A DNA stretch of 64,000 bases from Candidatus Poriferihabitaceae bacterium (GCA_965203365.1 OZ241878.1:2502174-2566173); one strand, 5' to 3'; numbered from the stretch's first letter, positions 21,524-61,838 are shown. A program made the numbers and translations. The notes: generated by a model from the letters alone, not told the origin.

Positions 21524-22650
21524 TCAGTCGTTCAAGCCCCTGCCAGACCTGCTTCGCCCCCGGCAGCGGCGGGCTCTTCGACGGATGACTGCCCCCAGTC
21601 GGTCGAGATCGGTCACCCCGGGGCGGATGTGGGGCCCGGTCCGATTCGTCGGGGTCGGGGAATCCCGGACCGAGGGCGCGGACTCGTCGGTCGGGGGAGG
21701 ACTCGGCGAGACCGGACCGGATGGCGTCGGGACGGGCTGGTGGCCGGGTGCCCGCAGCCCGGGATGCAGCCCGTCGATCTCCTCCAGGTCAAAGACCACC
21801 GTCGCCGGCCCGTCAGGCTGCTCGCGGGCGAGGAACTTGTCGACCGTGCCGGTCATGCCCGTGTCGGGCACAGTGGTGGTGGTTCCGAACTTGGCCTTCA
21901 GCAGGGCCGTCGCCGTGAACGCGCCGCCCTCGCCCTTGCCGTCGAGCGGGTCGTGGATGGCATACTGGCCGACCACGGGTCCCTCGAAGGTCGCCCCGCC
22001 GCCGAGCAGGGCGTCGTCGTCCTCTCTCAACCACCAGCCGAAGTACGCAAAGTGATAATCGGGATGGATCACCCTGGCCCCCTCATCGTGAACGAACATC
22101 CAGTCGGCGTTGCTGGGGGTTTGCAGGAAGTAGCCGCCGGTCCCAACCCCGACATCGCAGGTGCCGGTGCCGGGAGTGCAGTAGTAGTAGCCGGGTGCGC
22201 CCCGGTAGGAGCCCCGGACCTGGATCTCCTCGGCTCCGTCTTTCGCCGGGAAGTTCAGGGTGCCCGACTCCGGGAACTCGGGGGAGTCGATGCTGTGGTC
22301 GATCCCGGTGCCCAGGGATATCCTGCGCTCCGCCGCGGTGTAGTCCCCCGCGTTGGCCGTGAAGCTGTCCTTGGCACCCTGATCAGGGAACCATTTCGCG
22401 ACCGGAATGGAGTTCGGCCCTGTCCGGTTGCTGTACACCTTGACCTTGTCGGTGAACTTCCCTTCGCCGGAGCCCTGGGTCCTCTCGTAGTCCGTGACCG
22501 TCCACACGCCGCCCACCTTCTCCTCGGCGTCTCTGGCCTCCTCCGTGCCGTGCCGGAAGCTCACCGCACCATGCTTGTCCGATGTCGCTCGCGACCCCAC
22601 CACCCGCCGCGGGATCAATCCGGAAGTCTCCCCGAGGCCGGTCCAGGGTG
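21524..22650 (-). pseudogene. SLP fragment beta4a (TbpB-like, 5'- and 3'-truncated, frameshifted)
   Basis: Matches beta1 from LDRPRGDFRIDPAAG to MTGTVDKF. A 1-nt insertion relative to beta1 occurs after RIDPAAG. No signal peptide, and the C-terminal barrel is replaced by unrelated sequence. Confidence 0.8.
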
Positions 22651-22833
22651 AAGAGGCCCTGTGAAGGATTCGACCGCAGCCTAACTTGTTCGCTCAAGGG
22701 TGTCAAAAACCTTGACACAACCTTGTTGCGCTGTTCCCCGGCGCAGGCTCCAAGCCGGGAAACCGCGTGTAGCCGCAAAGGACAGGAAAGTCAACAACCC
22801 CGGAGCTTCCGCTCGACAGCCAGCACCACCTCA

Positions 22834-22869
22834 TACAGCCTCGCCGAGGGTCGCATCGGCGAGGCTGTA
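22834..22869. other. Conserved hairpin in the alpha 3' flank (copy 1 of 4)
   Basis: tacagcctcgccga-gggtcgca-tcggcgaggctgta. No U-tract on either strand. Mirror copy at 26935-26970; other copies at 35511-35554 and 40765-40808. Confidence 0.6.
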
Positions 22870-22946
22870 CGAGAAAAGGGGGGGACGCCCGGCCTGGAAA
22901 GGAGAAGCCCACCGGCCGGGCGCCCGATCAGGGGTCAAGTCGATGG

Positions 22947-24665
22947 CTAGTCGTTGACGTTCTGTTTCGTGATGTTGCTCGCGCCGAACGCGCCGACCAG
23001 CCGATGGGTGGTGCTGTATTCGGAGTAGAAGGTTCCGAGGACCTTGTCCGCCTCGTCGCGGCCGTCGCCGCCATCCGCAACGGTTCCGGGCGTGGTGTCA
23101 AACAACCGGGCTTCCCAGCTGTTGAGAACCTCCGGCCCCTTGACGTCGCCGATCGACATGACCGTCTTGGTGCCCCTTCTGGTGACCCGGGTTCCGGTGC
23201 TCTGATCAAAGCCGCTTTTCATCAACTGCACGCTCCAGCCCGGATCCTCGGACCCGCCGTTCAGCCGAAACTCGTCGATCGTGCCGGACAGGCCCGCATC
23301 GCGCACATTGTCGGGGTCCCCGAACCGGGCCTTCAGCGTGGCCTTCGCCTCGAATGCGCCGCCCTCGCCCTCGCCGTTGCGCGGGTCGTGGATGGCGTAC
23401 TGGCCGACCGCGGGGCCCTCGAAGGTCGCCGAGCCGTTGTAATTTCTGGCGGACGAGGTGTTGTCATCAATCAAGCCCTCGTAGCCGAAAAAGGCGGTGG
23501 CCAGTCTGGGCACGTCGTCGCTGCTGTTCGATCTCACCCACCAGCCGAAGTACAGGTAGCTACTATCGGTGAGGGACACCTGGGCGCCCGGGTCGTGGAC
23601 GAACCTCCAGTCGCCATTACTGTTACCCATGGAGAGGCCGCCTCTATTCACCCGGACTTGGCAGTCGGTCTTGCAGTAATAGTAGCCGGGCGCCCCCTGG
23701 TAGGTGCCCCGCACCTTGACCTCCGAGGCTCCGTTTTTCGGAGCGAAGAGCTTGGTTCCGGCTGCCGGGAACTCGGGGGACGCAATGAGCGGATCGACAG
23801 CGAAGTTCAGGGACAGCGAGCGATTCTTCGCGGTGTAGGTCCCTGTAGTAGCCGGCTTGTCATCGGAGCCGAAGTGTGCCGCGGCATCCTTCTTCGTATT
23901 CTCCCCCCGATCGTTGTACACCCGGGCCCGGTCGGTGAACTCGGGCACCAACTGGCCCTCGGTCCGGATACCGTCGGTCTGGTCCGAGACCATCCAGTCG
24001 CCTACCTTCTTGACGGGTTTGACGGTCGTGAAGACCACCGGGGACTCGTTGGGGACGTAGACATCGTTGACCTCGGTGCTGATCGGCAAGTCCCCGCCGC
24101 CGTCCGTAGGATCGAGCTTGATGCCGGTCGGGTCTCCGGAATTCGACAGGCCCGTCTGAACGTCGGCCGCGTCTGCCAGGTTGTCCAGCGCGTTCTTGAC
24201 GGCTGCGGCGGTGGTGGTGCCAGGTACAAGCGGCCCGTCCAGCGCCGCAAACAGCGCCTTGCCCGTGGCGGCCATGGCCTTCTTCTCGGCGGCCGCCTTC
24301 CTCTGCATGGCGGCCGTGCGGGACGCCGTCTTTCCCTCAAGCGTGCCCTCGAGGTTCCCGAGCCGCTGGCTGAGGGCGGCCCGCTGCGCGGCAGGCACCT
24401 TGTCGACGGCCGCCTTGGCGGCCGCCACCTTCGCGTCGGCGTCCATGGTGTTTTCGGAGTCGTCCGTCACCAGGTCGACAGCCGTCTCCGCCTCATTGAG
24501 GGCCGTGGTCGCCGCGTCAGCAAGCTCCTTCGGGGTCATCTCGTTATCCGGGGGGGTCATCTCGTTATCCGGGGGCGTCACCGGACCGCTGCTGCCGCCC
24601 CCGCAGCCCGCCAAGGCCAACCCAGCGGCCAGCAAGACCGCCATTAAGACATTGTGTTTGTTCAT
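22947..24665 (-). CDS. Surface lipoprotein alpha1 (TbpB/fHbp-like, intact)
   Basis: Signal and lipobox MNKHNVLMAVLLAAGLALAG|C. Ala/Lys-rich helical region. YFGWW motif and C-terminal 8-strand-barrel signature GSATFEGPAVGQYA...GAFEAKATLKARFG...GTIDEF...WSV...GTFY...LVGAFGA. Confidence 0.85.
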   Translation of the reverse strand: MNKHNVLMAVLLAAGLALAGCGGGSSGPVTPPDNEMTPPDNEMTPKELADAATTALNEAETAVDLVTDDSENTMDADAKVAAAKAAVDKVPAAQRAALSQRLGNLEGTLEGKTASRTAAMQRKAAAEKKAMAATGKALFAALDGPLVPGTTTAAAVKNALDNLADAADVQTGLSNSGDPTGIKLDPTDGGGDLPISTEVNDVYVPNESPVVFTTVKPVKKVGDWMVSDQTDGIRTEGQLVPEFTDRARVYNDRGENTKKDAAAHFGSDDKPATTGTYTAKNRSLSLNFAVDPLIASPEFPAAGTKLFAPKNGASEVKVRGTYQGAPGYYYCKTDCQVRVNRGGLSMGNSNGDWRFVHDPGAQVSLTDSSYLYFGWWVRSNSSDDVPRLATAFFGYEGLIDDNTSSARNYNGSATFEGPAVGQYAIHDPRNGEGEGGAFEAKATLKARFGDPDNVRDAGLSGTIDEFRLNGGSEDPGWSVQLMKSGFDQSTGTRVTRRGTKTVMSIGDVKGPEVLNSWEARLFDTTPGTVADGGDGRDEADKVLGTFYSEYSTTHRLVGAFGASNITKQNVND

Positions 24666-24800
24666 CGTTCAGTTCATGTTAGCAGATTGATAATATTCAA
24701 GCGAAACAATTCAATGCGGATTCTAAACAGTGAGGAAACTCTGGCCAAGGGACACATCTACCGACCAGAATCGAACCTAAATCAGCAAATAAGAATCGAC

Positions 24801-24830
24801 ATTATACATCGTTAAATCCCACCACTTCAA
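24801..24830 (-). promoter_or_regulatory. Putative alpha1 promoter
   Basis: On the minus strand: TTGAAG (24825-24830), an 18-nt spacer, then TATAAT (24801-24806). Lies in the 294-bp AT-rich module 24666-24959. Confidence 0.5.
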
Positions 24831-24959
24831 TTCGATACTCGGGTCAAGGCGAAGTTGATGCGTGATTATCTATCGGAATCGCCTCGGATGCAAGCCATAA
24901 CTGGTTTTCCGAATTCAAGGCGGATATGTCTAATAAGTGATTGACTTTAATAATTATTA

Positions 24960-25111
24960 CACTCAGAAGCGCCCCGCTCGGTGCGCTGCCCGAATAAAGG
25001 GAGCGCGGCGGCGACCGGACAATTCGGCCCCCAAGAGGCTGATTCGGTCATCAATTTCACGACACCAAGGCCCGCTCGGGCCGTGTCAGATGGGTTTTGA
25101 CCGAGCGGGAC
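24960..25111 (-). mobile_element. IS30-family 3'-end remnant
   Basis: Homologous to the sequence downstream of the IS30 transposase stops at 42553-42770 and 44059-44300. Carries an internal ~50-bp deletion relative to 36971-37172. Confidence 0.6.
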
Positions 25112-25212
25112 TCAGATTAGGTGGCCTGGGCAGACCCGACTGACCAGTGCCACTCTGGGGCATGAGATCGGCTAGGGCAAGGGCTATGCCAAGGGATTCG
25201 AAGCCGGTCAAC
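25112..25212 (+). repeat. 101-bp end of an unclassified IS-like element (copy a)
   Basis: Near-identical to 59913-60013. Its end interrupts the alpha2 signal-peptide coding region just before LALAGC. Confidence 0.7.
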
Positions 25213-26857
25213 TGGTCTGGCCCTGGCGGGCTGCGGTGGGGGCAGTTCGAATGATCCTCCCCCGCCGGCTCCGGGGCAGACGCTGGAGGCCGCGGCGGCG
25301 GAGGCCCTTGATGCGGCGAAGAAGGCTGTCGACCTGGTGACGGACGACTCCGAAAACACCATGGACGCCGACGCGAAGGTGGCGGCCGCCAAGGCGGCCG
25401 TCGACAAGGTGCCTGCCGCGCAGCGGGCCGCCCTCAGCCAGCGGCTCGGGAACCTCGAGGGCACGCTTGAGGGAAAGACGGCGTCCCGCACGGCCGCCAT
25501 GCAGAGGAAGGCGGCCGCCGAGAAGAAGGCCATGGCCGCCACGGGCAAGGCGCTGTTTGCGGCGCTGGACGGGCCGCTTGTACCTGGCACCACCACCGCC
25601 GCAGCCGTCAAGAACGCGCTGGACAACCTGGCGGCTGCGGCCGAGGTGCAGACGGGCCTGTCGAATTCCGGAGACCCGACCGGCATCAAGCTCGATCCTA
25701 CGGACGGCGGCGGGGACTTGCCGATCAGCACCGAGGTCAACGATGTCTACGTCCCCAACGAGTCCCCGGTGGTCTTCACGACCGTCAAACCCGTCAAGAA
25801 GGTAGGCGACTGGATGGTCTCGGACCAGACCGACGGTATCCGGACCGAGGGCCAGTTGGTGCCCGAGTTCACCGACCGGGCCCGGGTGTACAACGATCGG
25901 GGGGAGAATACGAAGAAGGATGCCGCGGCACACTTCGGCTCCGATGACAAGCCGGCTACTACAGGGACCTACACCGCGAAGAATCGCTCGCTGTCCCTGA
26001 ACTTCGCTGTCGATCCGCTCATTGCGTCCCCCGAGTTCCCGGCAGCCGGAACCAAGCTCTTCGCTCCGAAAAACGGAGCCTCGGAGGTCAAGGTGCGGGG
26101 CACCTACCAGGGGGCGCCCGGCTACTATTACTGCAAGACCGACTGCCAAGTCCGGGTGAATAGAGGCGGCCTCTCCATGGGTAACAGTAATGGCGACTGG
26201 AGGTTCGTCCACGACCCGGGCGCCCAGGTGTCCCTCACCGATAGTAGCTACCTGTACTTCGGCTGGTGGGTGAGATCGAACAGCAGCGACGACGTGCCCA
26301 GACTGGCCACCGCCTTTTTCGGCTACGAGGGCTTGATTGATGACAACACCTCGTCCGCCAGAAATTACAACGGCTCGGCGACCTTCGAGGGCCCCGCGGT
26401 CGGCCAGTACGCCATCCACGACCCGCGCAACGGCGAGGGCGAGGGCGGCGCATTCGAGGCGAAGGCCACGCTGAAGGCCCGGTTCGGGGACCCCAACAAT
26501 GTGCGCGATGCGGGCCTGTCCGGCACGATCGACGAGTTTCGGCTGAACGGCGGGTCCGAGGATCCGGGCTGGAGCGTGCAGTTGGTGAAAAGCCGCTTTG
26601 AGAGTGCCGGAAAAAAGGTCACCAGAAGAGGCACCAAGACGGTCATGTCGATCGGCGACGTCAAGGGGCCGGAGGTTCTCAACAGCTGGGAAGCCCGGTT
26701 GTTTGACACCACGCCCGGAACCGTTGCGGATGGCGGCGACGGCCGCGACGAGGCGGACAAGGTCCTCGGAACCTTCTACTCCGAATACAGCACCACCCAT
26801 CGGCTGGTCGGCGCGTTCGGCGCGAGCAACATCACGAAACAGAACGTCAACGACTAG
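25208..26857 (+). pseudogene. SLP alpha2 (promoterless, signal peptide truncated)
   Basis: The body is ~99% identical to alpha1 from codon 62 onward. Only ...STGLALAGCGGGSS remains of the signal peptide. An in-frame stop at 25163 leaves no start codon upstream. Confidence 0.8.
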
Positions 26858-28359
26858 CCATCGACTTGACCCCTGATCGGGCGCCCGGCCGGTGGGCTTC
26901 TCCTTTCCAGGCCGGGCGTCCCCCCCTTTTCTCGTACAGCCTCGCCGATGCGACCCTCGGCGAGGCTGTATGAGGTGGTGCTGGCTGTCGAGCGGAAGCT
27001 CCGGGGTTGTTGACTTTCCTGTCCTTTGCGGCTACACGCGGTTTCCCGGCTTGGAGCCTGCGCCGGGGAACAGCGCAACAAGGTTGTGTCAAGGTTTTTG
27101 ACACCCTTGAGCGAACAAGTTAGGCTGCGGTCGAATCCTTCACAGGGCCTCTTCACCCTGGACCGGCCTCGGGGAGACTTCCGGATTGATCCCGCGGCGG
27201 GTGGTGGGGTCGCGAGCGACATCGGACAAGCATGGTGCGGTGAGCTTCCGGCACGGCACGGAGGAGGCCAGAGACGCCGAGGAGAAGGTGGGCGGCGTGT
27301 GGACGGTCACGGACTACGAGAGGACCCAGGGCTCCGGCGAAGGGAAGTTCACCGACAAGGTCAAGGTGTACAGCAACCGGACAGGGCCGAACTCCATTCC
27401 GGTCGCGAAATGGTTCCCTGATCAGGGTGCCAAGGACAGCTTCACGGCCAACGCGGGGGACTACACCGCGGCGGAGCGCAGGATATCCCTGGGCACCGGG
27501 ATCGACCACAGCATCGACTCCCCCGAGTTCCCGGAGTCGGGCACCCTGAACTTCCCGGCGAAAGACGGAGCCGAGGAGATCCAGGTCCGGGGCTCCTACC
27601 GGGGCGCACCCGGCTACTACTACTGCACTCCCGGCACCGGCACCTGCGATGTCGGGGTTGGGACCGGCGGCTACTTCCTGCAAACCCCCAGCAACGCCGA
27701 CTGGATGTTCGTTCACGATGAGGGGGCCAGGGTGATCCATCCCGATTATCACTTTGCGTACTTCGGCTGGTGGTTGAGAGAGGACGACGACGCCCTGCTC
27801 GGCGGCGGGGCGACCTTCGAGGGACCCGTGGTCGGCCAGTATGCCATCCACGACCCGCTCGACGGCAAGGGCGAGGGCGGCGCGTTCACGGCGACGGCCC
27901 TGCTGAAGGCCAAGTTCGGAACCACCACCACTGTGCCCGACACGGGCATGACCGGCACGGTCGACAAGTTCCTCGCCCGCGAGCAGCCTGACGGGCCGGC
28001 GACGGTGGTCTTTGACCTGGAGGAGATCGACGGGCTGCATCCCGGGCTGCGGGCACCCGGCCACCAGCCCGTCCCGACGCCATCCGGTCCGGTCTCGCCG
28101 AGTCCTCCCCCGACCGACGAGTCCGCGCCCTCGGTCCGGGATTCCCCGACCCCGACGAATCGGACCGGGCCCCACATCCGCCCCGGGGTGACCGATCTCG
28201 ACCGACTGGGGGCAGTCATCCGTCGAAGAGCCCGCCGCTGCCGGGGGCGAAGCAGGTCTGGCAGGGGCTTGAACGACTGAACTGGGCGGTCTTGGGACGG
28301 GATGCCCTAGGTGAGAGAAAGCGAGAATGAGGTTGGATACAAGTTTAATATGTTGAAAG
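25325..28359. repeat. IR1 right arm
   Basis: See 21445-24482. Confidence 0.9.
27154..28280 (+). pseudogene. SLP fragment beta4b (mirror of beta4a)
   Basis: The 364-aa ORF translation is identical to 21524-22618. Confidence 0.8.
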
Positions 28360-28387
28360 CAGCCGCACCCGGCGGTGGAATCGGCGA

Positions 28388-28500
28388 TCAACTATCAGGA
28401 GCACCGGTGACTGGATCGGGTCAGGACGCATGGCGCTGAGGGCTTTGCCCGCACCGGGGACTGGTCGATGCTGGCGTTCAATCTTCGTGGTGGGTCAAGG
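28388..28500 (+). mobile_element. Transposase C-terminal remnant (DDE IS4/IS5-like tail)
   Basis: ...LDRVRTHGAEGFARTGDWSMLAFNL... resembles the ...R.RGL.K......L.A.A.NL.RL tails of DDE transposases. Paralogous remnants lie at 32119-32209 and 33255-33440. Confidence 0.45.
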
Positions 28501-28536: not shown

Positions 28537-29874
28537 TCAGAGTGGTCGGACGAAGCTGAGTTCGGCGCGGTTGCGTTCGAAGTCGAGGGCCTGGGCGTTG
28601 GTGTGGCGTTCCTCGCGGATGAGCGACAGGCGCGGGCTGAAGCCGCGCAGGGTCAGGGCGCGATTGTGGACCGAGAAGGTGAAGGTCCGCGTCTCGTCCC
28701 GGCGGGACTTTCGGTCGATGGTGTGATGGGCGGCGCCGCTTCCCTGATAGTCGGTACGCTCCAAGGCGGTGCGCAGGCCCAGCGTGAAGCCCTTCGGCAA
28801 CGCCAGCGTGGCGCCAAGGCTCACCTGCGGACCCCGGCTACGCCAGTGTTCCACCTTTGCCCGACTCCAGTTCCACCCCACATTCCCGCCCAGGCGCAGC
28901 GTGGGCCGCGCGATCCAACTGGCCCCGAGCGAGATCTCCCCCTCTGGACCATCCAGATGGCCGCAGCCGCGGCAGTTGCGCCGGGCAGCGCTGGTTTGGG
29001 CGGATATCGACAGCCTTGGCGTCAGGCGACGATCCGCCTCCAGCCGCAGGCCGAAGCGATCGGTTTCGGGCCGCCCGGCGGTCCATTGCCGGTCCACGGT
29101 CGCCAGCAGGCTGGCTTCGGAGCGGGCATCGATCAGCCAGCGTGGGCCCAGGTGCAGGGCCAAGGATTGCCGGTCGAACTCCCGACCCCGGTATTCCCGG
29201 AGGCTGGCATTCGCGCCGATGCGCAGCCGCCGGTGGTCCGTCAGTGGGTGCTGGTATTCGCCCCCGCCCCAGAGGGACAGGCCGAGGCCGGATTCAGGCT
29301 TCGCCGGATCGTCCAGGGTGAAGGGCAGCCGCCCGAAGTCCGTGTCAAGGAAGATCGTGCGCTCTCCCGAGGCCGCATTGAGGTTGCTGTCCGGGGCGAT
29401 GGCCGCGCCGAACCAGGCCTCCCACCGCCGCCGCTGCCGCATGACCTGGAGAAAGCGTCGTAAATTGGCCACCACCGCCGGCGGCAGGTCTCCGGCCAGC
29501 ACTTGCTCGAAATGCCGTTTCGCCCGCCTGTCCTCCTCCTTCAGGAAGAAGGCGTACGCCAGTTCGAGGCGCACCCGCACCAGTTCCGGCTGATTCACCA
29601 GGATGGCCCGGAAGGCCGCGATGGCCTCGTCGAGTTTCCCGTCCCGGGTTGCCCGATCCGATGCGGCCCGGGCGGCCTGGAGTGCCGCCATCCCGGCCTC
29701 GAAACGCTGGCCAGTCAGGGCCTCGTCCGAGAGGGCCGTTGCTTCCGTCTTTCCCGTCGGGGTAGCGGGGTCGGCACCGAAGGCGGACGAGGGAGTCCCG
29801 CCGACGGTCACCAGCAGTCCGGCCAGCGGGATCAGCAGGGCCCGGAAAGCGGGGCCGACAGGAAATCGCATCAT
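28537..29874 (-). CDS. Slam (surface lipoprotein assembly modulator, DUF560) outer-membrane protein
   Basis: Signal peptide, then a TPR-like region, then the hallmark LPPAVVANLRRFLQVMRQRRRWEAWFGAAIAPDSNLNAAS, then an alternating beta-strand C-terminal domain ending FERNRAELSFVRPL. ATG chosen at 29872-29874; the ORF track begins at a TTG. Confidence 0.8.
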   Translation of the reverse strand: MMRFPVGPAFRALLIPLAGLLVTVGGTPSSAFGADPATPTGKTEATALSDEALTGQRFEAGMAALQAARAASDRATRDGKLDEAIAAFRAILVNQPELVRVRLELAYAFFLKEEDRRAKRHFEQVLAGDLPPAVVANLRRFLQVMRQRRRWEAWFGAAIAPDSNLNAASGERTIFLDTDFGRLPFTLDDPAKPESGLGLSLWGGGEYQHPLTDHRRLRIGANASLREYRGREFDRQSLALHLGPRWLIDARSEASLLATVDRQWTAGRPETDRFGLRLEADRRLTPRLSISAQTSAARRNCRGCGHLDGPEGEISLGASWIARPTLRLGGNVGWNWSRAKVEHWRSRGPQVSLGATLALPKGFTLGLRTALERTDYQGSGAAHHTIDRKSRRDETRTFTFSVHNRALTLRGFSPRLSLIREERHTNAQALDFERNRAELSFVRPL

Positions 29875-30001
29875 GGCGTCAGGGGGCAATCGGAAAAAAA
29901 GGGGGGAACCGGGAGAAGATCCAGAATCGGGAAGGGGGGTGCCGGAAGTGCTCCCAGGGTCAGGCCGGGAACCGGGGCGGATTCCCGCCTGAACGGGTCG
30001 G

Positions 30002-31582
30002 CTACTCGTTGGTGTCCTTCACGCCGAAGGCACCGACCAGCCGGTGGGGGCTGCCGTACTCGGAGTAGACACTGGCGAGGATCAGGTCCGGCACAGTGTT
30101 GTTGGCTTTTTTCCGGGTATCGAAATACGTGGCGCCTTTCCACTAGCCGGACTCCTTCGCCGGGTTGCCGTTGATCGACCAGACGGTCCTGGCCGACGCA
30201 AGACTGTTACTGGTCGTGCCCGAGCCATATGCCGCTCTTTTCAACTCCACGCTCCAGCCCGAATCCGTGGATCCACCCTTCAGGCGGAACCCGTTGATCG
30301 TGCCGGTCACGCCCGCGTTCTCGACGACGGGGCTTCCGACGGTGTTCCCGAAAATAGCGTTCAGCGTGACGTCTGCCGTGAAGGCGCCGCCGTCGCTGTC
30401 CTCTCTCACCCAGCAGCCGAAGTAGTAGAAGGTCTTATCGGTCACGGTCACTTGGGCACCCTCGTCGTACTGGAAGATCCATTTCTCCAACAGGGGATAG
30501 GCATCGTCCTTGGTATTTTCAACAATTCCGACCTTCAATTCAACCGTGCAGTCGCCAGCGGTGGCGGATGTGCAGCGATAGTTGCCTGGGGCACCCTGAT
30601 AGGTGCCCTGGATGCTGACGACGTTGGTTTCCGTATCCTTCGGCGAATCGAAGTCCGTCTTCCCCGCTGTCGGGAACCCGTCGGACTGGATGTGGATATC
30701 TTCTTTGGTGGCCATATCCCCGTCATGCTTCAGAGGCAGCGTCATCGCAGCCGCATCATGGTTTCCCGCGTTGGGCGGTCGGTCTGTACCCGCGAAGTGT
30801 TTCGCCGCATCCACCTCCATATTCTTCCAGTTGGAGTAGATCCTGGCCCAGTCGGTGACAGTGGAGTAGGTGGAGGGGGCTTCGTTGCCGGTTGGGGTGT
30901 TGGTGAGCCCAGTGCGCCGGTAGTCCGTGACCATCCAGGGAGACCCCTTTCCCACCGACCGGGGTGCCCCGACCGGATCAAGGGCCTTCGTCTTGTGGGT
31001 GCCGAGTGCTTTATCCTTGTCGTCGAGCGGCATCGACCCCGCGCCGTCCACGGGATTGACCTCCAGCTGAGGGAGGCCGACCTCAAGGACCTTGCTCCCG
31101 TCAGTGCCCGTGGCCTTGAGGCGAAAGTCTTGCTCAATGTTGTTCAGCGCGGTCAGGTTGGTCTGGGCACTGCCGTCCGAGTCCTTGGGCCCGGCCAGCG
31201 CCGCAAACATCGCCTTGCTGGTGGCGACGTTCTTGGCCTTCATGGCGGTCGTGCGCGACTCCTTCGCTTCGTTAAGCATGCCCACGAGGTTCCCGAGCTG
31301 CTGGCTGAGGGCGGCCCGCTGCGCAACTGGCACCTTGTTGACGGCCGTCCGGGCCGCCGCCAGCTTCGTATCGGCGTCGGTGACCTTGGCGTCATCGGCA
31401 GTGTCCGTCACCGCCTCGACGGCGGTCTTCGCCGCCGCGGCCCGTTGCGCCGGGGTTTGGGTCATGGTGCCATCGCCATCATTGTTCGTATTCGGGATGG
31501 TACTGTTGTTGCCGCCGCCGCAGCCAGCCAAAGTCAGCAAGGCGGCCAGCAGGACAGTCATCAAGAGATTGGGAGTGTTCAT
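30002..31582 (-). pseudogene. SLP gamma (TbpB-like) with a single in-frame TAG
   Basis: MNTPNLLMTVLLAALLTLAG|C lipobox. TAG at 30143-30145 sits where paralogs have Ser/Asn (GSW/NSW/GNW). The same frame continues for 46 codons, WKGATYFDT...VYSEYGSPHRLVGAFGVKDTNE, to a TAG at 30002-30004. Confidence 0.8.
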
Positions 31583-32075: not shown

Positions 32076-32118
32076 TCGGTCAGGGGAGGTTGATACCGGA
32101 AAGGGGAGTCAACGACCG

Positions 32119-52273: not shown

Positions 52274-52930
52274 CTAGAGTATCTTGACCAGCGCGACGAC
52301 CAACGCGACGATCAGTCCTCCCTGGGCGATCAGTGCGCTGAACATCCATTTCAGCAGATCCGCCTTGACCTGCGCCATATCGGCCTTGGTCTCCTGTCGC
52401 AAGGTTTCGATATCAGCCTTGATCTTCGCCATATCGGCCTTGGTCTCCTGTCGCAAGGCTTCGATATCCGCCTTCGTGGCCTGTTTCAGTGCCTCGATAT
52501 CGGCCCTGATCTGCGCCACATCGGCCTTGGTCTCCTGTCGCAAGGCTTCGATATCCGCCTTCGTGGCCTGTTTCAGTGCCTCGATATCGGCCCTGATCTG
52601 CGCCACATCGGCCTTGGTCTCCTGTCGCAAGGCTTCGATATCCGCCTTCGTGGCCTGTTTCAGTGCCTCGATATCGGCCTTGGTCTCCTGTCGCAAGACT
52701 TCGATATCAGCCTTCGTGGCCTGTTTCAGTGCCTCGATATCGGCCCTGATCTCCGCCACATCGACCTTGGTCTTCTGTCGCAAGGCTTCGATATCGACCT
52801 TCGTGGCCAAATTGGTGTTGAGCAGGGCGACCTGCTCCTCAGCCAGCGTTTCCGCCTGCAGCTCAGTAAAGCCGCTGCCCGTCAAACGCTTGACAAAGCG
52901 GTGCGTATCAAATGCGATGGCTTCGGTCAT
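52274..52930 (-). CDS. DUF1640-like coiled-coil protein (expanded allele)
   Basis: Same N-terminal 45 aa and C-terminal TM as 51396-51758, but ~13 repeat units. The 395-aa ORF reading in from the GFA pseudogene is a read-through artefact. Confidence 0.75.
   Translation of the reverse strand: MTEAIAFDTHRFVKRLTGSGFTELQAETLAEEQVALLNTNLATKVDIEALRQKTKVDVAEIRADIEALKQATKADIEVLRQETKADIEALKQATKADIEALRQETKADVAQIRADIEALKQATKADIEALRQETKADVAQIRADIEALKQATKADIEALRQETKADMAKIKADIETLRQETKADMAQVKADLLKWMFSALIAQGGLIVALVVALVKIL
52370..52810. repeat. 33-bp in-frame tandem repeat (~13 units, with 99-bp higher-order periodicity)
   Basis: Visible periodicity in DNA and in the translation (TKADIEALKQA TKADIEALRQE TKADVAQIRAD ...). 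Confidence 0.85.
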
Positions 52931-53094
52931 GAGGAAATTATAGCCCATCCACTCCGGCCCAACAAGCCTCGGCCAGGTCGGCTCCGAAAGCGTTCCGTCT
53001 GACGGGAAAACTGCGGGCGTCTCCGCTGGAACTCGACCCCGACGCCCGCCCGTTCTCTTCCGCGTCGGACTCGGCTTCCAAGCCGACTTCACCC

Positions 53095-53461
53095 ACCAGC
53101 CCCGGCGCAAGCCAAGGCTTGACCCCCGTGGTCCAGCGATCACTGGTGGGGCAATGCCCGAGGGTTCGTCGAGCATACCGGCCTGCAGGCTGATCGTGAG
53201 GCCGCCTTCCCCGCGAACGCCCCCACCCGCACGATCGAGTCGGGTACCGCATGCGCCCCAGCGCGAGCAGGGTTTCACGCCTCTCGAGTCGCCTCTCGTG
53301 TGGTAAAGGCGCCGCTCGGGGCCTGTGAACTCGACTGCGTCCCACTCCATCCCCATTGACAGCCCAAACGCGCTTGAGGACTGCTTCTGGCCAATCATGC
53401 AGTGGCAGGCGTAGAGCGCAACCGGGGCGCGAAGAAGCCGGTAGCGGATTGCACCGCACAC
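53095..53461 (-). pseudogene. GFA-family (CENP-V/glutathione-dependent formaldehyde-activating-like) gene, frameshifted
   Basis: CGAIRY...ACHC..CQKQSSSAF...C..CGTRL...GMLDEP in one frame, then ...HCPTSDRWTTGVKPWL in another. The N-terminus also looks shortened. Confidence 0.45.
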
Positions 53462-57134: not shown

Positions 57135-58781
57135 ATGAACAAACACAATGTCTTAATGGCGGTCTTGCTGGCCGCTGGGTTGGCCTTGGCGGGCTGCGGG
57201 GGCGGCAGCGGTCCGGCGACGGCCCCGAACGACGGCGAGATGACACCCGAGATGACCCCGGCGCAACTTGCTGACGCGGCGGACAAGGACCTCAAGGCGG
57301 CGGAGACGGCTGTCGGCAGGGTGACGGACACGGCCGATGACGCCAGGGTCACCGACGCCGATACGAAGGTGAAGGCGGCCAAGGCGGCCGTCAACCAGGT
57401 GCCTGCCGCGCAGCGGGCCGACCTCAGCGAGCGGCTCGGGAAGCTTGAGGCGAGGCTTGACGCCGCGAAGGTGTCCCGCACGGCCGCCCTGGAGAAAAAG
57501 AGGATGGCCGAGGCCGCGGCGATGAAGGAGACGGCGGGCAAGCTGTATGCCGGCATTGCCGCGAGAAATTTTGGTGGCAGTAATAGTGTAGGGCGGCGGG
57601 GTGCGTACTTTGATGATCAGAATCTCAAGGTGCAGATTGACGGGAATGAGGTTACCCTGAAAAAAGACAAGGAGGCGATGGTCCCGGCGATCAAGGACTG
57701 GGTGGGAGAGAAGTACACCCTGACCGAAGGTGTCGATACCTACGAGGCCTATATTTACGGCGATATGGCGGAAGGCAGTTTGAAGACGCTCAAGGAAAAG
57801 CATGACGAATATGACGAAACCACCGGCGTGTTGCCCTGGGCAGAAGTCCTGAGAAGCTCTGGCTCCCGCATTGGACGCACTGGTTTCGGCATCACAGCCG
57901 GGTACAAGACTTACCCGCCAGATAATCCCGGCGGCACCGAGGTGACGATCAAGGGCACCTACCTCGGCGTACCCGGCACCTACCGGTGCGTGCCGAATAA
58001 AGGTTATCGGTGCGCAGCGTATCTGTACGTCGAAAACAATGATGATAAGGAAACCATCGTTCTTACCGGACAGCAGATCGAAAATGAAGGGTACCGGAAC
58101 GATAACGTGACTTGGACGTTCAAGGCGGACGACCCGAAGGCCAAGGTCAGGCAGGCGGACGCGGTCGGCTGGTCCATGTACGGCTGGTGGATCAAGAAGT
58201 CCAGTGACACTGGTACCTTGACCGCAAGCGCGTTCTATGACATCAGGAGCGGGAGTGTGACGGGAGTCGACAGGACAAATGTACCCCAGCAGATACACGG
58301 CGATGCGACCTATGAGGGTGGGGCCGCTGGCCTGTACGCACTCTACAGCAACCCCAGCAGTGGGCACGACGCCGGCCAGTTCGTTGCAGACGCCCGGTTT
58401 GAAGCGAACTTCGATACCGACAAGGTCAGTGGTGTCATCAACAACTTCAGGACAGGCAACCTCGGGACGTCACCGGAAAGGCCGCGGGACTGGTCCGTCG
58501 AACTGATGCCGGTGAATATTAAGAATAACAATACCAGCGTGAGTAGTAGTACGCCTAATGCAGGCGCCCATGGCGAGACCGAAAAGACCAAATGGACCAT
58601 CGGCGGAACCGCTGCAGCAGCCTCCGGCAACTGGTTCGGAGGGTTCAGTCAGAAGGATAATGGCATCGGCAAGAGCGTAATCCCGCAGACGGTAATCGGG
58701 AACTTCTACTCCGAATACGGCCGGGTGGGCAAGATCGTCGGCGGCTTCGGGGCGAATCTGAAGACGCAGACGGAGGAGTAG
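57135..58781 (+). CDS. Surface lipoprotein delta (TbpB/fHbp-like, intact)
   Basis: The first 75 nt are identical to alpha1/beta1 (MNKHNVLMAVLLAAGLALAG|CGGGS). YGWWIKK motif and barrel signature GDATYEGGAAGLYA...FVADARFEANF...GVINNF...WSV...GNFYSEYG..GKIVGGFGA. Confidence 0.85.
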   Translation: MNKHNVLMAVLLAAGLALAGCGGGSGPATAPNDGEMTPEMTPAQLADAADKDLKAAETAVGRVTDTADDARVTDADTKVKAAKAAVNQVPAAQRADLSERLGKLEARLDAAKVSRTAALEKKRMAEAAAMKETAGKLYAGIAARNFGGSNSVGRRGAYFDDQNLKVQIDGNEVTLKKDKEAMVPAIKDWVGEKYTLTEGVDTYEAYIYGDMAEGSLKTLKEKHDEYDETTGVLPWAEVLRSSGSRIGRTGFGITAGYKTYPPDNPGGTEVTIKGTYLGVPGTYRCVPNKGYRCAAYLYVENNDDKETIVLTGQQIENEGYRNDNVTWTFKADDPKAKVRQADAVGWSMYGWWIKKSSDTGTLTASAFYDIRSGSVTGVDRTNVPQQIHGDATYEGGAAGLYALYSNPSSGHDAGQFVADARFEANFDTDKVSGVINNFRTGNLGTSPERPRDWSVELMPVNIKNNNTSVSSSTPNAGAHGETEKTKWTIGGTAAAASGNWFGGFSQKDNGIGKSVIPQTVIGNFYSEYGRVGKIVGGFGANLKTQTEE

Positions 58782-59439
58782 CACCGCCCGCAGAATAGCG
58801 CCTCGCCACGGCGCCGTCTCGCCCGCCAGCGTCGGTCCTAAACCTCAATGGTGACCTGGCGGGTGCCTTCGGCGGCACGCGGGGGCAGATCCTCATAAGC
58901 GCAGGACGATTCTTTGTCCGGCCGGTCATGATCGGGCCAGCAATTTCCGCCAAGGAAATCCCCCCGTGGATTCGGCGGGATTTTCGGGTGCAGAGGCATG
59001 ATGCCCCGTATTCGGGGGGCGCGAGCCATCCGTTCATCTGGCCAGGGCCAATGGGCCTTGGGGGCGGTGTGGTTTCGGGTCGTGTTGAACCGTGAACCGT
59101 TTGCGTCGGGCCGGGGGGACCCGAAGAAGAGCCCCCTCGGGGTCGCTGACATCCCATGAGATTGCATCCAGCTGCTCCGGGGTGATATCCGGCTTGAGGA
59201 GTGCACTGCGCCCGGGTGGGGCCGGCGTTTCGCGTGGGGGGCGTGATGTTCCGGGCAGCGTCGTCGGCCAGAAGGGATGACCGGATTAAGGAGTACAGAC
59301 GGCCCGTCCCTTCACGACCGGAACGCTCCCCGCGTAGCGGAAGTCATTTTTTCCCTGAAAAGTCTTGATTCCGGATTGAAATTTCGGGGGGGTAGGTAGA
59401 ATGAATCCTGCTGATGCAAGACCCGCACCGCCCCCCGGA

Positions 59440-60013
59440 TCTGTCATTCACACCCACCTGACAAATGGTCAGGGAGAGGGATCCCGGAGCCGGGGTTTCA
59501 TGGCTTGGTACATACGTGGAGTGCCTCAGCAACCCCATGGCCTGCTAGAGTTTCGCCGCGCCGGGCATTGGCTGGCGTTGGGAGGGATGAAACCCGACCC
59601 GCCGGGCGAGGTCGACCACGCAGGTCGCCAATCGGGTCGAGCAGGGGTTGTTCCGCCCCGCCGAACGGCGGCAGCGGGCCCTGGCCATTCAGGCCGTCAT
59701 CGCCTGGCGCCATCCTGGTGATGATCCTGCTCCGGCCGTCCAATACCCAACTGTGAACCCCAGTGGATGTTCACTGACGTCGAGTTGACCTTCTGGCAGG
59801 AGGATGCCGAACAGGTCTGACTGAATGGACCCCACCCATTGGGGGATGCGGTGCCATGGGGTGCGCATCTGGGGGGGTACCGGGGTCGCCGGCAGGATCC
59901 GGATCCCGGCCATCAGATCAGGTGGCCTGGGCAGACCCGACTGACCAGTGCCACTCTGGGGCATGAGATCGGCCAGGGCAAGGGCTATGCCAGGGGATTC
60001 GAAGCCGGTCAAC
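59440..60013 (-). mobile_element. Unclassified IS-like remnant (multiple stops and frameshifts)
   Basis: Contains the 101-bp repeat (59913-60013) and the junction module ...VVDLARRVGFHPSQRQPMPGAAKL*QAMGLL. Family not recognised. Confidence 0.4.
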
Positions 60014-60221
60014 AAGCGGCCTTAAGGTTACTCCGCCCTCCGACACCCAAGGACGCGGCTTCCCCCAAACCATGACCCCCTGACGGGGGGGATCCGGCGG
60101 AATCTCCGCCGGGCTGGCCCCTGACATCGGGGTCCCAGCGGGTCAACAGGGCGTCACACAGTCGATGATGAATTGCCAGCGTCATCCATGATTTGTGTAT
60201 GCTCGGTAGCCTGCGGCGGCG

Positions 60222-61838
60222 CTACTCCTCCGTCTTCAGGTTCGCCCCGAAGCCACCGACCATCTTGCCCACACCGCCGTACTCGGTATAGAAGTTCCCG
60301 GTCATCACCTTCGGGCGCAAGGTCCCGCCGCGACCGCTATCCTGCTGGGTGAATTTTCCGGTCCAGTTGCCAGAGGCATCCGCAGCGGTCCCGCCGATGG
60401 TCCACTTGGTCCTTTCGGTCGCTTTCCAGTCGCCTATGTTTTCCGTGGTCGAGTTCTTGATCTCCGCCGACATCAGTTCGACCGACCAGTCCCGCTGGCT
60501 TTCCGGCGACGTCCCGAGGGCGCCGGTCCGGAAGTTGCTGAGGGTCCCCTTGATCTTCTGGGTATCGAAGTTCGCTTCAAGCATGGCGTCTGCAACGAAC
60601 TGGCCGGCGTCGTTGGTTCCGCCGGTAGGGCTGTGCAGCGCGTACAGGCCGGCGGACCCGCCCTCATACGTCGCCTTTCCCTTCACCAAATCGCCATTTG
60701 CAGTACCGACAGTTATGTCATTTAGTGACGGCCGCTCGCCATAGAACGCACTCGCGGTCCAGGGGCCGTCCCCGGACTTCTTGAGCCACCAGCCGTACAT
60801 CGACCAGGCAGTATAGTCTATCTGCATTATCTTGGCCTTCGGATCATCGGCCTTGAACGTCCAGTCCGCCAGGGTGTTCGCGTAATTGTTTTCGTCCTCC
60901 CCGAGAAGGTCGACGCCTTCCTCACCCTCTGAGTTGATGGACAATCGCGCGGCGCACTTGTGGTCGGCGGCGGTGGGCGTGCACCGGAAGGTGCCGGGGA
61001 TGCCGTAGTAGGTGCCCTTGATCGTCACCTCGGTGCCACCACCCAGTTCGTATACCTTGTACCCGCTCGTGATGCCAAAGCCAGCGCGTCCGATCCCATT
61101 TCCGTTGGAATACAGGGCAGCCTTGTCCAATACCCCGGTCGTATCGTCATACTCGTTGCCGTGCTTGTCCTCAAGCGTCTGGAACTCGCCTTCCGAAACA
61201 TCGCCGTAGACATAGGCCTCGTAGGTATCCCGACCGTCGGTCAAGGTGTACTTCTCTCCCCTCCAGCCCTTGATGGCCGGGACCATCGCCTCCTTGTCCG
61301 TCTTCAGTTCCTTCACGACCTTCTCGATCTGCACCCTGAGCACCTGGCTGGCAAAGATCGCATTCCGCCGGCCCGTGAATTCACTGGTGCGACCCCCGGT
61401 GCGCCTGAAAATGCCGTGATACAGCTTGCCCGCCGTCTCCTTCATCGCCGCGGCATCGGCCATCCTCTTTTTCTCCAGGGCGGCCGTGCGGGACACCTTC
61501 GCGGCGTCAAGCCTCGCCTGAAGCCTCCCGAGCCGCTCGTTGAGGTCGAGGTCGGCCCGCTGCGCGGCAGGCACCTTGTCGACGGCCGCCGCGGCCGCCT
61601 TCACCTTCGCCTCGGCGTCGGTGACCTTGGCGACATCGGCCGTGTCCGTCACCATGCCGACAGCCGTCTCCGCCGCCTTGAGGTCCTTGTCCGCCGCGTC
61701 AGCAAGTTGCGCCGGGGTCATCTCGGGTGTCATCTCGCCGTCGTTCGGGGCCGTCGCCGGACCGCTGCCGCCCCCGCAGCCCGCCAAGGCCAACCCAGCG
61801 GCCAGCAAGACCGCCATTAAGACATTGTGTTTGTTCAT
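60222..61838 (-). CDS. Surface lipoprotein delta' (TbpB/fHbp-like, intact)
   Basis: Same signal and lipobox; roughly 65% identical to delta by eye after residue ~60. YGWWLKK motif and barrel signature GKATYEGGSAGLYA...GNFYTEYGGVGKMVGGFGA. Confidence 0.85.
   Translation of the reverse strand: MNKHNVLMAVLLAAGLALAGCGGGSGPATAPNDGEMTPEMTPAQLADAADKDLKAAETAVGMVTDTADVAKVTDAEAKVKAAAAAVDKVPAAQRADLDLNERLGRLQARLDAAKVSRTAALEKKRMADAAAMKETAGKLYHGIFRRTGGRTSEFTGRRNAIFASQVLRVQIEKVVKELKTDKEAMVPAIKGWRGEKYTLTDGRDTYEAYVYGDVSEGEFQTLEDKHGNEYDDTTGVLDKAALYSNGNGIGRAGFGITSGYKVYELGGGTEVTIKGTYYGIPGTFRCTPTAADHKCAARLSINSEGEEGVDLLGEDENNYANTLADWTFKADDPKAKIMQIDYTAWSMYGWWLKKSGDGPWTASAFYGERPSLNDITVGTANGDLVKGKATYEGGSAGLYALHSPTGGTNDAGQFVADAMLEANFDTQKIKGTLSNFRTGALGTSPESQRDWSVELMSAEIKNSTTENIGDWKATERTKWTIGGTAADASGNWTGKFTQQDSGRGGTLRPKVMTGNFYTEYGGVGKMVGGFGANLKTEE

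Follow-up and report, generated by a model that had tools for sequence, protein, structure and literature searches.

The TbpB-type lipoprotein genes located beside a Slam gene in the 64,000-nt stretch of DNA analysed here (the window) are probably paralogs encoding Slam cargo, a family to which duplication, inversion, damage by IS elements and ordinary gene conversion have given its present form, and not a dedicated archive of silent cassettes. The silent copies are mostly very recent duplicates or decaying fragments located beside transposon debris, which argues for a scrambled gene family and against an antigenic-variation archive. The promoterless "cassettes" stem mainly from two young palindromic duplications of 3.07 kb and 2.67 kb. 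The genome is that of a gammaproteobacterial sponge symbiont, Arenicellales-like as suggested by purL.

A family-profile HMM, built from 19 members, matched exactly 13 reading frames in the window, the number of TbpB/fHbp-like copies given by the original prediction. As it had also stated, alpha1, beta1, delta and delta' are complete genes, all with a lipobox, and the remaining copies are defective: gamma is interrupted by a single TAG stop codon and eight pieces are truncated. A start codon together with a lipobox was confined to the four complete genes and gamma, and a promoter and signal peptide were found in few copies, in agreement with the small number of expressible genes claimed. The single family span proposed, 21524-61838, was right as to the copies and not as to a single locus: housekeeping genes (purL, dapA and a TRAP transporter) separate a 21-kb alpha/beta/gamma cluster (21445-42552) from the delta pair. 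The earlier census also left unmentioned the two large, nearly perfect inverted duplications which lie behind much of the copy number. ICE conjugation genes adjoin the alpha/beta/gamma cluster, and the family probably sits on or beside an ICE.

The product of the Slam gene (surface lipoprotein assembly modulator, DUF560/TXISS; 28537-29889, minus strand), 450 aa long, matched Pfam SlipAM over profile positions 1-285 of 288 (E 9.7e-21; 75 bits, above the curated cut-off of 22 bits) and TPR_Slam (E 9e-8). The lipoprotein gene directly upstream is gamma (30002-31594, minus strand; HMM frame 30146-31747). The nonsense codon predicted for gamma is a TAG at 30143-30145, its only in-frame interruption, after which the frame runs to the normal C-terminus of the family. 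The intact lipoprotein genes delta (57135-58781, plus strand) and delta' (60222-61838, minus strand) are convergent and 79% identical overall, their 5' regions being 97% identical over 471 nt (dS 0.34, dN/dS 0.69 for the pair). A delta-like fragment upstream of dapA (49517-49939, plus strand; profile positions 345-447) is 76% identical to 60490-60797 in delta'.

The family proteins start with an SPII signal and its lipobox, followed by a short linker rich in proline, a helical N-terminal module and, at the C-terminus, a beta-rich region like a TbpB lobe or HpuA. Their predicted fold shows a moderate resemblance to those of HpuA and TbpB. For the AlphaFold2 model of alpha1 (pLDDT 75), the top PDB match in Foldseek was HpuA (probability 1.0, E 1.3e-5), with TbpB also among the top matches; for the C-terminal model (pLDDT 86.9) it was the TbpB C-lobe (probability 0.99). 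The window proteins gave no Pfam TbpB_B_D match and no sequence-level PDB match. Their N-terminal module recurs, at 49% identity, in P0053, whose C-terminal end is a genuine Pfam TbpB_B_D barrel. With lipoboxes, a TbpB/HpuA-like predicted fold and a genuine Slam, the identification of TbpB-type lipoproteins beside Slam was upheld.

Self-BLAST of the window revealed the two palindromes. In palindrome A the left arm (21445-24516), carrying a beta-type fragment and the alpha1 body, aligned in inverted orientation with the right arm (25291-28359, read as 28359-25291), carrying the alpha2 body and a beta-type fragment, with 99.0% identity over 3072 nt. Alpha1 (22947-24665, minus strand) is an intact 572-aa lipoprotein with the N-terminus MNKHNVLMAVLLAAGLALAGCGGG. 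Alpha2 (25213-26857, plus strand; HMM frame 25166-26854) is an open alpha body 99% identical to alpha1; its frame starts inside the signal peptide and keeps ...GLALAGCGGG, and the start codon, the first ~14 codons and the promoter are missing. The coding differences between alpha1 and alpha2 are confined to a few clusters. The left beta-type fragment (21524-22693, minus strand; HMM frame 21527-22693) is a decayed pseudogene that matches the profile only from position 181 to 449. It is frameshifted close to the 5' end, has lost an internal segment in frame and is frameshifted or truncated on the 3' side; it shares 92% identity with the beta ortholog in OZ241893.1. The right fragment (27111-28280, plus strand; HMM frame 27111-28277) is its mirror copy, with 0 differences over 1170 nt; in all, the beta-type fragments are shifted in frame twice, have an internal deletion and are truncated at both ends.

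The arms of palindrome B (33767-36437 and 39882-42552, the latter read as 42552-39882) are inverted and 100% identical over 2671 nt, and its 3.4-kb spacer contains the whole of beta1 (37467-39224, plus strand), an intact 585-aa lipoprotein. Beta2 (33430-35094, plus strand; HMM frame 33247-35091), cut just upstream of the lipobox cysteine and without a promoter, is 98.8% identical to beta1 over 1623 nt. Beta4 (41225-42552, minus strand; HMM frame 41228-42637), from which ~148 N-terminal codons are missing, is identical to beta2, and both are 2 SNPs from beta1 over the shared body. Alpha3 (35654-36952, minus strand; HMM frame 35657-36991) has lost ~144 N-terminal codons and shares 92.5% identity with the alpha ortholog in OZ241893.1; alpha4 (39882-40665, plus strand; HMM frame 39613-40662), which comprises the C-terminal 261 codons only, shows 0 differences from alpha3.

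Part of this copy number could be due to assembly error, with strain haplotypes mis-joined or fold-back errors made when the long-read metagenome was assembled. Points in favour are that the source is a 3.70-Mb contig, that the related genomes found are sponge-metagenome MAGs and that the palindrome B arms are identical. This explanation is very unlikely, given that the palindromes enclose unique, gene-containing spacers of 0.8 kb and 3.4 kb, that the alpha1/alpha2 differences in the arms of palindrome A are clustered and that similar structures occur in independent assemblies. Each structure measures 7-9 kb, a distance which typical HiFi reads should cover.

The spacer of palindrome A (24517-25290; 0.6-0.8 kb) holds its only promoter and 5' end, so that after recombination between the arms the alpha2 body would be expressed in place of the alpha1 body. 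This could be the basis of an inversion switch, in which the arms, or ~34-nt inverted lipobox-coding repeats, recombine and flip the spacer with the promoter and the first signal-peptide codons, toggling expression between the two bodies; the inverted SLP pairs that recur in other symbionts would operate likewise. The open frame of alpha2, the loop patches that differ between alpha1 and alpha2, and the inverted SLP pairs of 97-100% identity found in L004, L008, L009, L011 and L023 are consistent with a switch. We nevertheless regard it as quite unlikely. The differences between alpha1 and alpha2 amount to a few clustered patches, and the pay-off from switching would therefore be small; palindrome B could not switch anything, because beta1 lies wholly inside the spacer and the arms are identical; and several of the relatives' pairs are convergent or consist of two complete genes, so that inversion would change nothing there. 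No recombinase gene was found inside the alpha/beta/gamma cluster, the nearest being an ICE-type tyrosine recombinase at 6081-6998, and the assembled sequence presents the palindrome A spacer in a single orientation. Moreover, inverted duplicates are in any case the repeats that can recombine and not be lost by deletion.

The scrambled family, which we prefer, is reflected in the sequences flanking the copies. The AT-rich region upstream of alpha1 (24666-24963, minus strand) is 100% identical to that upstream of beta1 (37169-37466, plus strand), where a sigma-70-like site, TTGAAG-18-TATAAT, is located; in all, a 491-nt promoter and signal-peptide region is common to both genes. Sequences resembling the end of an IS30-like element lie upstream of both promoters: element E' (24964-25111), 83% identical to 42553-42708 and in parts 85-96% identical to 36981-37168 and 44117-44290, and element E (36971-37168), which precedes the beta1 promoter and is separated by 18 nt from the cut 5' end of alpha3. 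The IS30-like element itself (42553-44290, plus strand) is degenerate, its HTH_38 and rve frames (Pfam E 1.2e-5 and 7.9e-5, both below the cut-offs) being split by a stop, and part of its 3' end is duplicated within it in inverted orientation (42653-42831 versus 44172-43993). The truncation of beta4 at 42552 adjoins this element. The truncated 5' end of alpha2 adjoins segment X (25112-25212), 97% identical to 59913-60013 downstream of delta', and the sequence just upstream of alpha4 (39801-39873) is 89% identical to 33026-33098. Between beta2 and alpha3 lies a transposase-like C-terminal fragment (YEKRWLIEEWFRALK; 35125-35458, plus strand), mirrored at ~40861-41194 and 80% identical to L013 16665-16998; it gave no Pfam match and is, by motif only, a candidate IS4-family sequence. 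A fragment resembling the N-terminus of a TrwC-type relaxase (32844-33000, plus strand) matched Pfam TrwC weakly (E 0.0011, below the cut-off). The truncation points vary by copy, falling near the lipobox, at codon ~144-148 or at codon ~282, with those of alpha2 and beta2 at different nucleotides, and several adjoin IS-like, transposase-related or repeated non-SLP DNA.

The block sharing between copies reflects real recombination. The peptide patches named by the original prediction were found in the copies as described: VKSRFESAGKKV and DPNNV in alpha2, alpha3 and alpha4, and the block VQGAGSHTFEPTDG...GVTLEEGKTTSARDYDGS in alpha3 and alpha4. The distribution of its three N-terminal helix variants was also reproduced, except that VTDTADDAKVT occurs in delta only approximately (R for K); delta' has V for the second D. 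A PHI-type permutation test gave a recombination signal in three alignments (p<=0.001). For hundreds of bases alpha1 does not differ from alpha3; this identity is broken by three patches in which alpha3 is of the ortholog type and alpha1 is 65-70% identical to alpha3. In the patch at 23312-23175, alpha2 agrees with alpha3 and the ortholog, so that the putatively expressed alpha1 has the derived patch and the silent alpha2 retains the ancestral one. The dN/dS ratio of alpha1 versus alpha3 was 1.43, and ~0.67 for other pairs; the variable patches lie mostly between predicted strands.

These findings bear on the reading offered originally, an archive like pilS, vls or tprK: alpha1 and beta1 would be the expression sites and the promoterless copies maintained donors, from which RecA-dependent segmental gene conversion copies loop patches into the expressed genes at high frequency. 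Phage or the sponge host would then meet Slam-displayed lipoproteins that vary as antigens or receptors. The patchwork with its recombination signal, the excess of replacements concentrated in predicted loops, and the derived patch in alpha1 against the ancestral one in alpha2 are in its favour, as is the service of the alpha/beta cluster by only two promoter regions, mutually identical. Two further observations count against the scrambled family: all five larger truncated copies (alpha2, alpha3, alpha4, beta2 and beta4) are free of internal stops, which also speaks for an archive, and several are inverted relative to a promoter-bearing copy, an orientation that allows sequence exchange by recombination without deletion. 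An archive is unlikely, however. Its repertoire would be tiny, with at most two alleles per variable patch in the window, beta2 and beta4 close to beta1 and alpha4 the same as alpha3, and no donor for the unique loop patch of alpha1 was found in the window. The beta-type fragments are frameshifted and gamma carries its nonsense codon, the truncation points are heterogeneous and in several cases beside IS-like or repeated DNA, and the cluster has no recombinase gene. The open frames of alpha2 (P = 0.24) and beta2 (P = 0.34) are within neutral expectation, and no G-quadruplex (G4) motif was found beside the alpha1 or beta1 promoter.

The orthologous locus of a related genome also argues against an archive. 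Its genes are intact and arranged in tandem, and two samples of it agree at 99.8% (4 SNPs over 12.1 kb), with no sign of rapid change. In other MAGs most copies are intact and lipobox-bearing, and ~17 other MAG loci have relatives no more than 10 kb away from a full-length Slam-like match, in line with the assignment as Slam cargo. At least two other sponge-symbiont genomes also have inverted SLP pairs that are nearly identical; this counts against the scrambled family and could point to selection for the arrangement.

Further intact family members, with shuffled N-termini (P0015 and P0021), occur elsewhere in the same genome and likewise count against that reading.

The alternative named in the original prediction, IS-associated pseudogenisation of a paralog family, fits better than the archive, and palindromic duplication and gene conversion have to be added to it. 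By the Neisseria Slam paradigm, the lipoproteins would pass through Sec, be lipidated, reach the outer membrane and be displayed on the surface by the adjacent Slam, with the variable loops facing outside. The anatomy of the locus suggests that an alpha-beta pair, which persists as an intact tandem in a related MAG, was duplicated, inverted and cut, and that IS elements and ectopic repeats took part in the rearrangement. The young duplications A (99%) and B (100%) would have made most promoterless copies. Homologous gene conversion between paralogs may have homogenised stretches such as the 491-nt region of alpha1 and beta1, and may also have carried loop-coding patches between copies, producing the mosaic. 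The promoterless copies would then be by-products of turnover, some of them decaying, which occasionally act as sequence donors and do not form a maintained donor library. Variation would arise on evolutionary time scales, aided by horizontal transfer, and not through a programmed high-frequency switch.

The locus shares with Neisseria Slam (TXISS-1A) and its cargo TbpB, LbpB, fHbp and HpuA a DUF560/SlipAM outer-membrane protein adjoining SPII lipoproteins, a predicted C-terminal handle-plus-barrel fold with HpuA and TbpB as best PDB matches, and variable regions in loops. DUF560 genes are widely paired with TbpB_B_D proteins (PMC8406197). Unlike the Neisseria cargo, the window proteins match neither Pfam TbpB_B_D nor, at the sequence level, any PDB entry, and are single-lobed with a long helical module in front. 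The host is a sponge symbiont and not an animal pathogen, many paralogs accompany one Slam, and the window showed no TonB-dependent receptor as a partner.

Few expressed genes, nearby promoterless partial copies and mosaic variable patches recall Neisseria pilE/pilS, Borrelia vlsE, Treponema tprK and Anaplasma msp2. Such archives contain many different cassettes with conserved flanks and often cis elements (the pilE G4, the vls direct repeats), whereas the cassettes of the window mostly duplicate the expressed genes, with two alleles per patch, some frameshifted copies and several junctions beside IS-like or repeated DNA. The promoter segment of palindrome A, located between opposed gene bodies, resembles Campylobacter fetus sap, Mycoplasma pulmonis vsa and M. 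agalactiae vpma, and the cuts in alpha2 and beta2 fall in the part that encodes the signal peptide, much as in silent vsa genes. Unlike these systems, the cluster lacks a gene for a recombinase, and a conserved short recombination site was not identified; alpha2 and beta2 are not cut at the same nucleotide, other truncated copies are cut elsewhere, and the assembled window locus does not present both orientations. In Helicobacter pylori, babA and babB are outer-membrane paralogs that undergo gene conversion without dedicated machinery. The protein family and export route differ, and large palindromic duplications and IS damage are added in the window; as in babA/babB, conserved 5' and 3' regions flank middle segments exchanged by ordinary homologous recombination, and the mosaicism is visible in the genomes.

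A search of the window with a profile of 19 family members yielded exactly 13 pieces of surface lipoprotein (SLP) genes, in agreement with the copy count and the completeness list of the original prediction; the peptide blocks quoted there were all found at the places assigned to them. Four copies, alpha1, beta1, delta and delta', are of full length and carry a lipobox, and gamma is interrupted by a single TAG codon at 30143-30145, after which it remains in frame up to the conserved C-terminus. The other 8 of the 13 pieces lack the start codon, the signal peptide or more. Entries of the protein collection match in length alpha2 (506 aa, 25337-26857) and alpha4 (344 aa, 39631-40665), and others fit beta2 (547 aa, 33250-35094) and beta4 (442 aa, 41225-42553), which indicates that the annotation has called these truncated copies as normal proteins beginning at internal start codons. 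Automated copy counts therefore overstate the number of functional genes.

Self-comparison of the window revealed that the bulk of the SLP copy number derives from two large inverted duplications, which the original prediction had overlooked. In palindrome A (arms 21445-24516 and 28359-25291; 3072 nt, 99.0% identity) each arm consists of an alpha body and, after it, a beta fragment; in palindrome B (arms 33767-36437 and 42552-39882; 2671 nt, 100% identity) each arm has a beta body and an alpha body with a transposase-like fragment between them. The spacer of palindrome A (24517-25290) includes, in this order, the 5' end of alpha1, a 298-nt AT-rich upstream region, the 148-nt element E', similar to the end of the IS30-like element, 101 nt with 97% identity to a stretch downstream of delta', and the truncated 5' end of alpha2, where ...GLALAGCGGG is still encoded. 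The spacer of palindrome B, 3.4 kb long, includes a 5' remnant of alpha3, a second such element (E), the same AT-rich region as at alpha1, and the entire beta1 gene; beta1 and beta2 are also direct repeats of each other (98.8% over 1623 nt). That this arrangement is an artefact of assembly appears very unlikely.

The AT-rich upstream regions of alpha1 and beta1 are 100% identical, and the 491-nt tract over which the two genes are 99% identical reaches codon 38. Promoter, signal-peptide start and E element were considered as a cassette mobilised by the IS30-like element; this was dropped in favour of gene conversion, since the homology runs past the 491-nt tract. The IS30-end-like elements themselves (24964-25111 and 36971-37168) are 150-200 nt long, each with a conserved hairpin, and lie directly outside the two identical promoter regions.

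The window has a G+C content of 64%, and its positions 1-21400 are occupied by the conjugation genes of an integrative conjugative element (ICE): a TraD-like coupling protein (536-2632), an ICE-type tyrosine recombinase (6081-6998), AcaB (8762-9718), TraG_N (16315-17889), TraU (19843-20883) and DUF1525 (20859-21359), with DUF3577 and DUF2859 in the same module. The lipoprotein cluster and Slam follow at 21445-42552, and then a degenerate IS30-like element at 42553-44290, with its HTH_38 and rve frames split and its own 3' end partly duplicated in inverted orientation. Located 3' of it are purL, dapA, coiled-coil genes and a TRAP transporter, with the delta pair last (57135-61838). The SLP cluster is probably on or beside a mobile element, and may be cargo of the ICE. 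No tRNA attachment site for the ICE was found in the window, no Rfam match was obtained over 21-64 kb, and Pfam searches with three suspected transposase fragments of the window gave no match.

Several smaller features accompany these genes. An N-terminal fragment of a TrwC-like relaxase lies inside the SLP cluster (32844-33000). Non-coding repeats, only 100-200 nt long and 88-94% identical, occur at dispersed sites near both SLP clusters and at the outer ends of palindrome A (31875-32079 with 52276-52071; 51857-52056 with 59434-59631; 21444-21570 and 28234-28359 with 62657-62783; 28359-28484 with 33263-33388), and are candidates for MITE or flank remnants. The two coiled-coil genes, CCDC90-like (DUF1640-type) and located at 51396-51866(-) and 52274-53461(-), carry different numbers of 33-nt (11-residue) tandem repeats, and for the longer frame an N-terminal GFA-domain match was obtained as well. 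A CCDC90-like gene was also found beside the SLP genes of loci L001 and L002 (the latter on contig OZ241893.1) from other metagenome-assembled genomes (MAGs).

The assignment of the gene at 28537-29889(-), directly downstream of gamma, to Slam was confirmed by a Pfam SlipAM (PF04575) match of 75 bits against a cut-off of 22, covering profile positions 1-285 of 288; the TPR_Slam match, at 32.9 bits, was slightly below its cut-off of 35.2. The lipobox was read from the sequence as LALAGC in alpha1, beta1, delta and delta' and as LTLAGC in gamma, and all five have a putative SPII signal with lipobox cysteine. No Pfam match to the TbpB_B_D barrel (PF01298) was obtained for alpha1, beta1, delta or gamma, the only Pfam match of gamma being a sub-threshold one to DUF7537, and a search with the SLP family profile gave no sequence relatives in the PDB. 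AlphaFold2 models were made of whole alpha1 (pLDDT 75) and of its C-terminal 372 residues (pLDDT 86.9). Their top Foldseek matches in the PDB were HpuA (5ee4; E 1.3e-5, probability 1.0), TbpB (3hol and 4qq1) and the TbpB C-lobe (5kkx; probability 0.99), with TM-scores of only 0.34-0.42. In about 17 of 61 genome loci, SLP relatives have a full-length Slam-like match no further than 10 kb away. It is reasonable to describe the window lipoproteins as TbpB/HpuA-like Slam cargo, a label based on fold, lipobox and gene context and not on sequence membership.

In the related protein P0053 (residues 26-133 and 541-670), the lipobox and helical N-terminal module of alpha1 (49% identity) are joined to a different body that terminates in a canonical Pfam TbpB_B_D barrel, a fusion which points to the N-terminal module as a unit shuffled across SLP families. 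Shuffling of N-terminal modules is seen among the SLP paralogs of this genome as well: two more of them, P0015 and P0021, encoded outside the window, have an N-terminus of the alpha1/beta1 type on a body of the delta type.

The original prediction suggested that the mosaic of shared blocks may reflect an archive of silent cassettes, a donor library comparable to pilS, vls or tprK, and named plain IS-mediated pseudogenisation as the alternative. Both the observation and the recombination behind it stood. A PHI-type permutation test, written by ourselves, was applied to three alignments (the alpha copies, the N-terminal regions of nine copies, and alpha plus beta) and gave p<=0.001. Stretches of hundreds of bases show no difference between alpha1 and alpha3, in regions where both depart from the ortholog on contig OZ241893.1. 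In three patches alpha3 matches this ortholog, with no more than 65-70% identity between alpha3 and either alpha1 or alpha2; a fourth patch is shared by alpha2, alpha3 and the ortholog, with alpha1 alone deviating, and in a fifth the deviating copy is alpha2. The dN/dS ratio was 1.43 for alpha1 versus alpha3 and about 0.67 for other pairs, and most of the variable patches are located between predicted strands. These values and positions are in keeping with diversifying selection on exposed loops.

The donor archive itself failed its key test, the diversity of donors. Many promoterless cassettes with differing variable regions would be expected of such an archive, yet the alpha patches exist in the window as two alleles each. 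There is no difference between beta2 and beta4, and each departs from beta1 at 2 positions of the body that they share; alpha3 and alpha4 are likewise identical, as are the two beta fragments, and the differences between alpha2 and alpha1 are confined to a few clusters. Nor could the expressed variable segments all be traced to donor cassettes within the window, where the alpha1-specific patch at 23175-23225 (MKSGFDQSTGTRV) occurs only once. The beta fragments are plainly decayed, with a 5' frameshift, an internal deletion, a 3' frameshift and truncation at both ends.

The idea that the open frames had been preserved beyond neutral expectation was likewise not upheld. A simulation based on substitution counts, usable for alpha2 and beta2 only, gave a probability of no stop codon of 0.24 and 0.34, respectively, with the pairs beta1/beta4, alpha3/alpha4 and alpha1/alpha3 left aside since they had been cut outside codon phase; these open frames are unsurprising since few substitutions are carried. 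Truncation points vary among the copies and most border foreign or repeated DNA: beta4 ends exactly at the tip of the IS30-like element, alpha3 ends 18 nt from an IS30-end-like element, alpha4 is preceded by a repeat also present upstream of beta2, and alpha2 borders a segment copied from near delta'. The cluster was found to contain no recombinase gene, and a G4 search gave motifs within alpha3, within alpha4 and upstream of delta' only, with none at the promoters of alpha1 and beta1. A scan of JGI metagenomes yielded 7 distant loci, all with at most 37% identity, and no strain variants. A maintained archive of silent cassettes is improbable.

An inversion switch at palindrome A was also considered, given that its spacer carries a promoter and a 5' end between inverted gene bodies, such that alternative genes could be joined to the same promoter. 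This arrangement holds for palindrome A and not for palindrome B. No recombinase-like frame was seen at 21.4-64 kb, small frames being only partly scanned; this region contains SLP copies, Slam, IS debris and housekeeping genes, and the only tyrosine recombinase found is that of the ICE. No dedicated site-specific recombinase was thus seen at the locus, and such a switch is improbable. A conserved recombination site at the lipobox was rejected too: the cut points of alpha2 and beta2 are close and not identical, and their flanks are unrelated repeats.

Near-identical (97-100%) inverted SLP repeats were found in at least two other sponge-symbiont genomes: in locus L004 (1764-2814 / 9558-8509, 99.6%), L008 (12603-15135 / 21479-18943, 97%), L009 (559-1894 / 6371-3255, 97%), L011 (2640-4734 / 7854-5761, 99.8%) and L023 (3329-5073 / 7856-6111 and 11517-12700 / 14954-13771, 99-100%). 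One partner in L011 is cut directly after the lipobox, like alpha2. Inversion would be without effect at some of these pairs, because the genes are convergent or both complete. Inverted repeats are the duplicates that survive recombination without deletion; the recurrence of inverted SLP pairs in symbionts is only partly explained.

A DUF1703-type gene, encoding Pfam AAA-ATPase_like and PDDEXK_9 nuclease domains, is located in the ICE block at 14394-15968(-). Its homologs (50-53% identity) are interleaved with SLP paralogs in the multi-copy SLP clusters that other sponge MAGs contain, where they often directly precede an SLP gene or are oriented divergently to one: L004 (6807-8342, 11626-13164), L005 (18044-19600), L006 (17511-19052), L008 (17295-18857), L009 (7538-9094, 15269-16831), L011 (998-2554, 8183-9742), L013 (6951-8492), L014 (three copies) and L023 (8622-10169). 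Among single SLP-Slam loci, DUF1703 was seen only as a short partial match (L056). Expansions of DUF1703 genes, of unknown function, have been described in the symbiont Cardinium (PMC6387759).

The SLP family is rare, with 61 database matches, almost solely in MAGs of several bacterial classes, many of which carry bin names of sponge studies; the related chromosome-level MAGs were apparently produced by sponge genome projects, which publish microbial metagenomes as well. Most SLP copies in other genomes are intact with a lipobox and fragments are occasional, so that the high share of truncated copies is peculiar to the window. On OZ241893.1 the alpha and beta orthologs form an intact tandem and more intact paralogs are present. 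A contig from a second sample was 99.8% identical to this locus over 12.1 kb, with four SNPs, and no sign of rapid variation was detected there across the two samples. The window lacks the IS1380-like element by which the orthologs of L001 and L002 are flanked.

Segments 21996-22647, 22945-24516, 35640-36952 and 37637-39206 of the window are 85-94% identical at the DNA level to positions 8105-11764 of locus L002 on OZ241893.1, with dS of 0.10-0.26. This contig is labelled Alphaproteobacteria, whereas the purL gene of the window is gammaproteobacterial and Arenicellales-like, its nearest named relatives being Arenicellales and Candidatus Poriferihabitaceae (about 60-70% identity), which places the source in a sponge-associated lineage of the Gammaproteobacteria. 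The flanks of the two SLP loci do not match. High SLP identity, different class and unmatched flanks together suggest that SLP genes have recently passed from one class to another in sponge microbiomes. The family is expanded in sponge-symbiont genomes of several classes and appears to move between them.

The best-supported explanation, which we consider probable, is a family of Slam-cargo paralogs that is being reshaped by recent palindromic duplications, by truncation associated with IS elements and by ordinary gene conversion. On present evidence, an actively rearranging paralog family is the better description of the locus, which illustrates how fast a surface-protein cluster can be remodelled by palindromic duplication, IS activity and gene conversion. 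It also extends Slam-type lipoprotein export to candidate cargo from an uncharacterised family without Pfam match.

A broader proposal, which we regard as doubtful, is that in sponge symbionts inverted, promoterless but open SLP bodies recombine with a few identical promoter and signal-peptide sites and so vary the lipoproteins displayed by Slam. Such variation would proceed by gene conversion, or by a flip of the promoter spacer as in palindrome A, and the DUF1703 genes (AAA-ATPase-like plus PD-(D/E)XK nuclease) found among SLP paralogs of other symbiont MAGs could be the source of the breaks that start it. If true, Slam cargo would gain its first variation system of the cassette or inversion type, which would also be the first known from an animal symbiont that is not a pathogen: a new type of surface variation, belonging to a mutualist.
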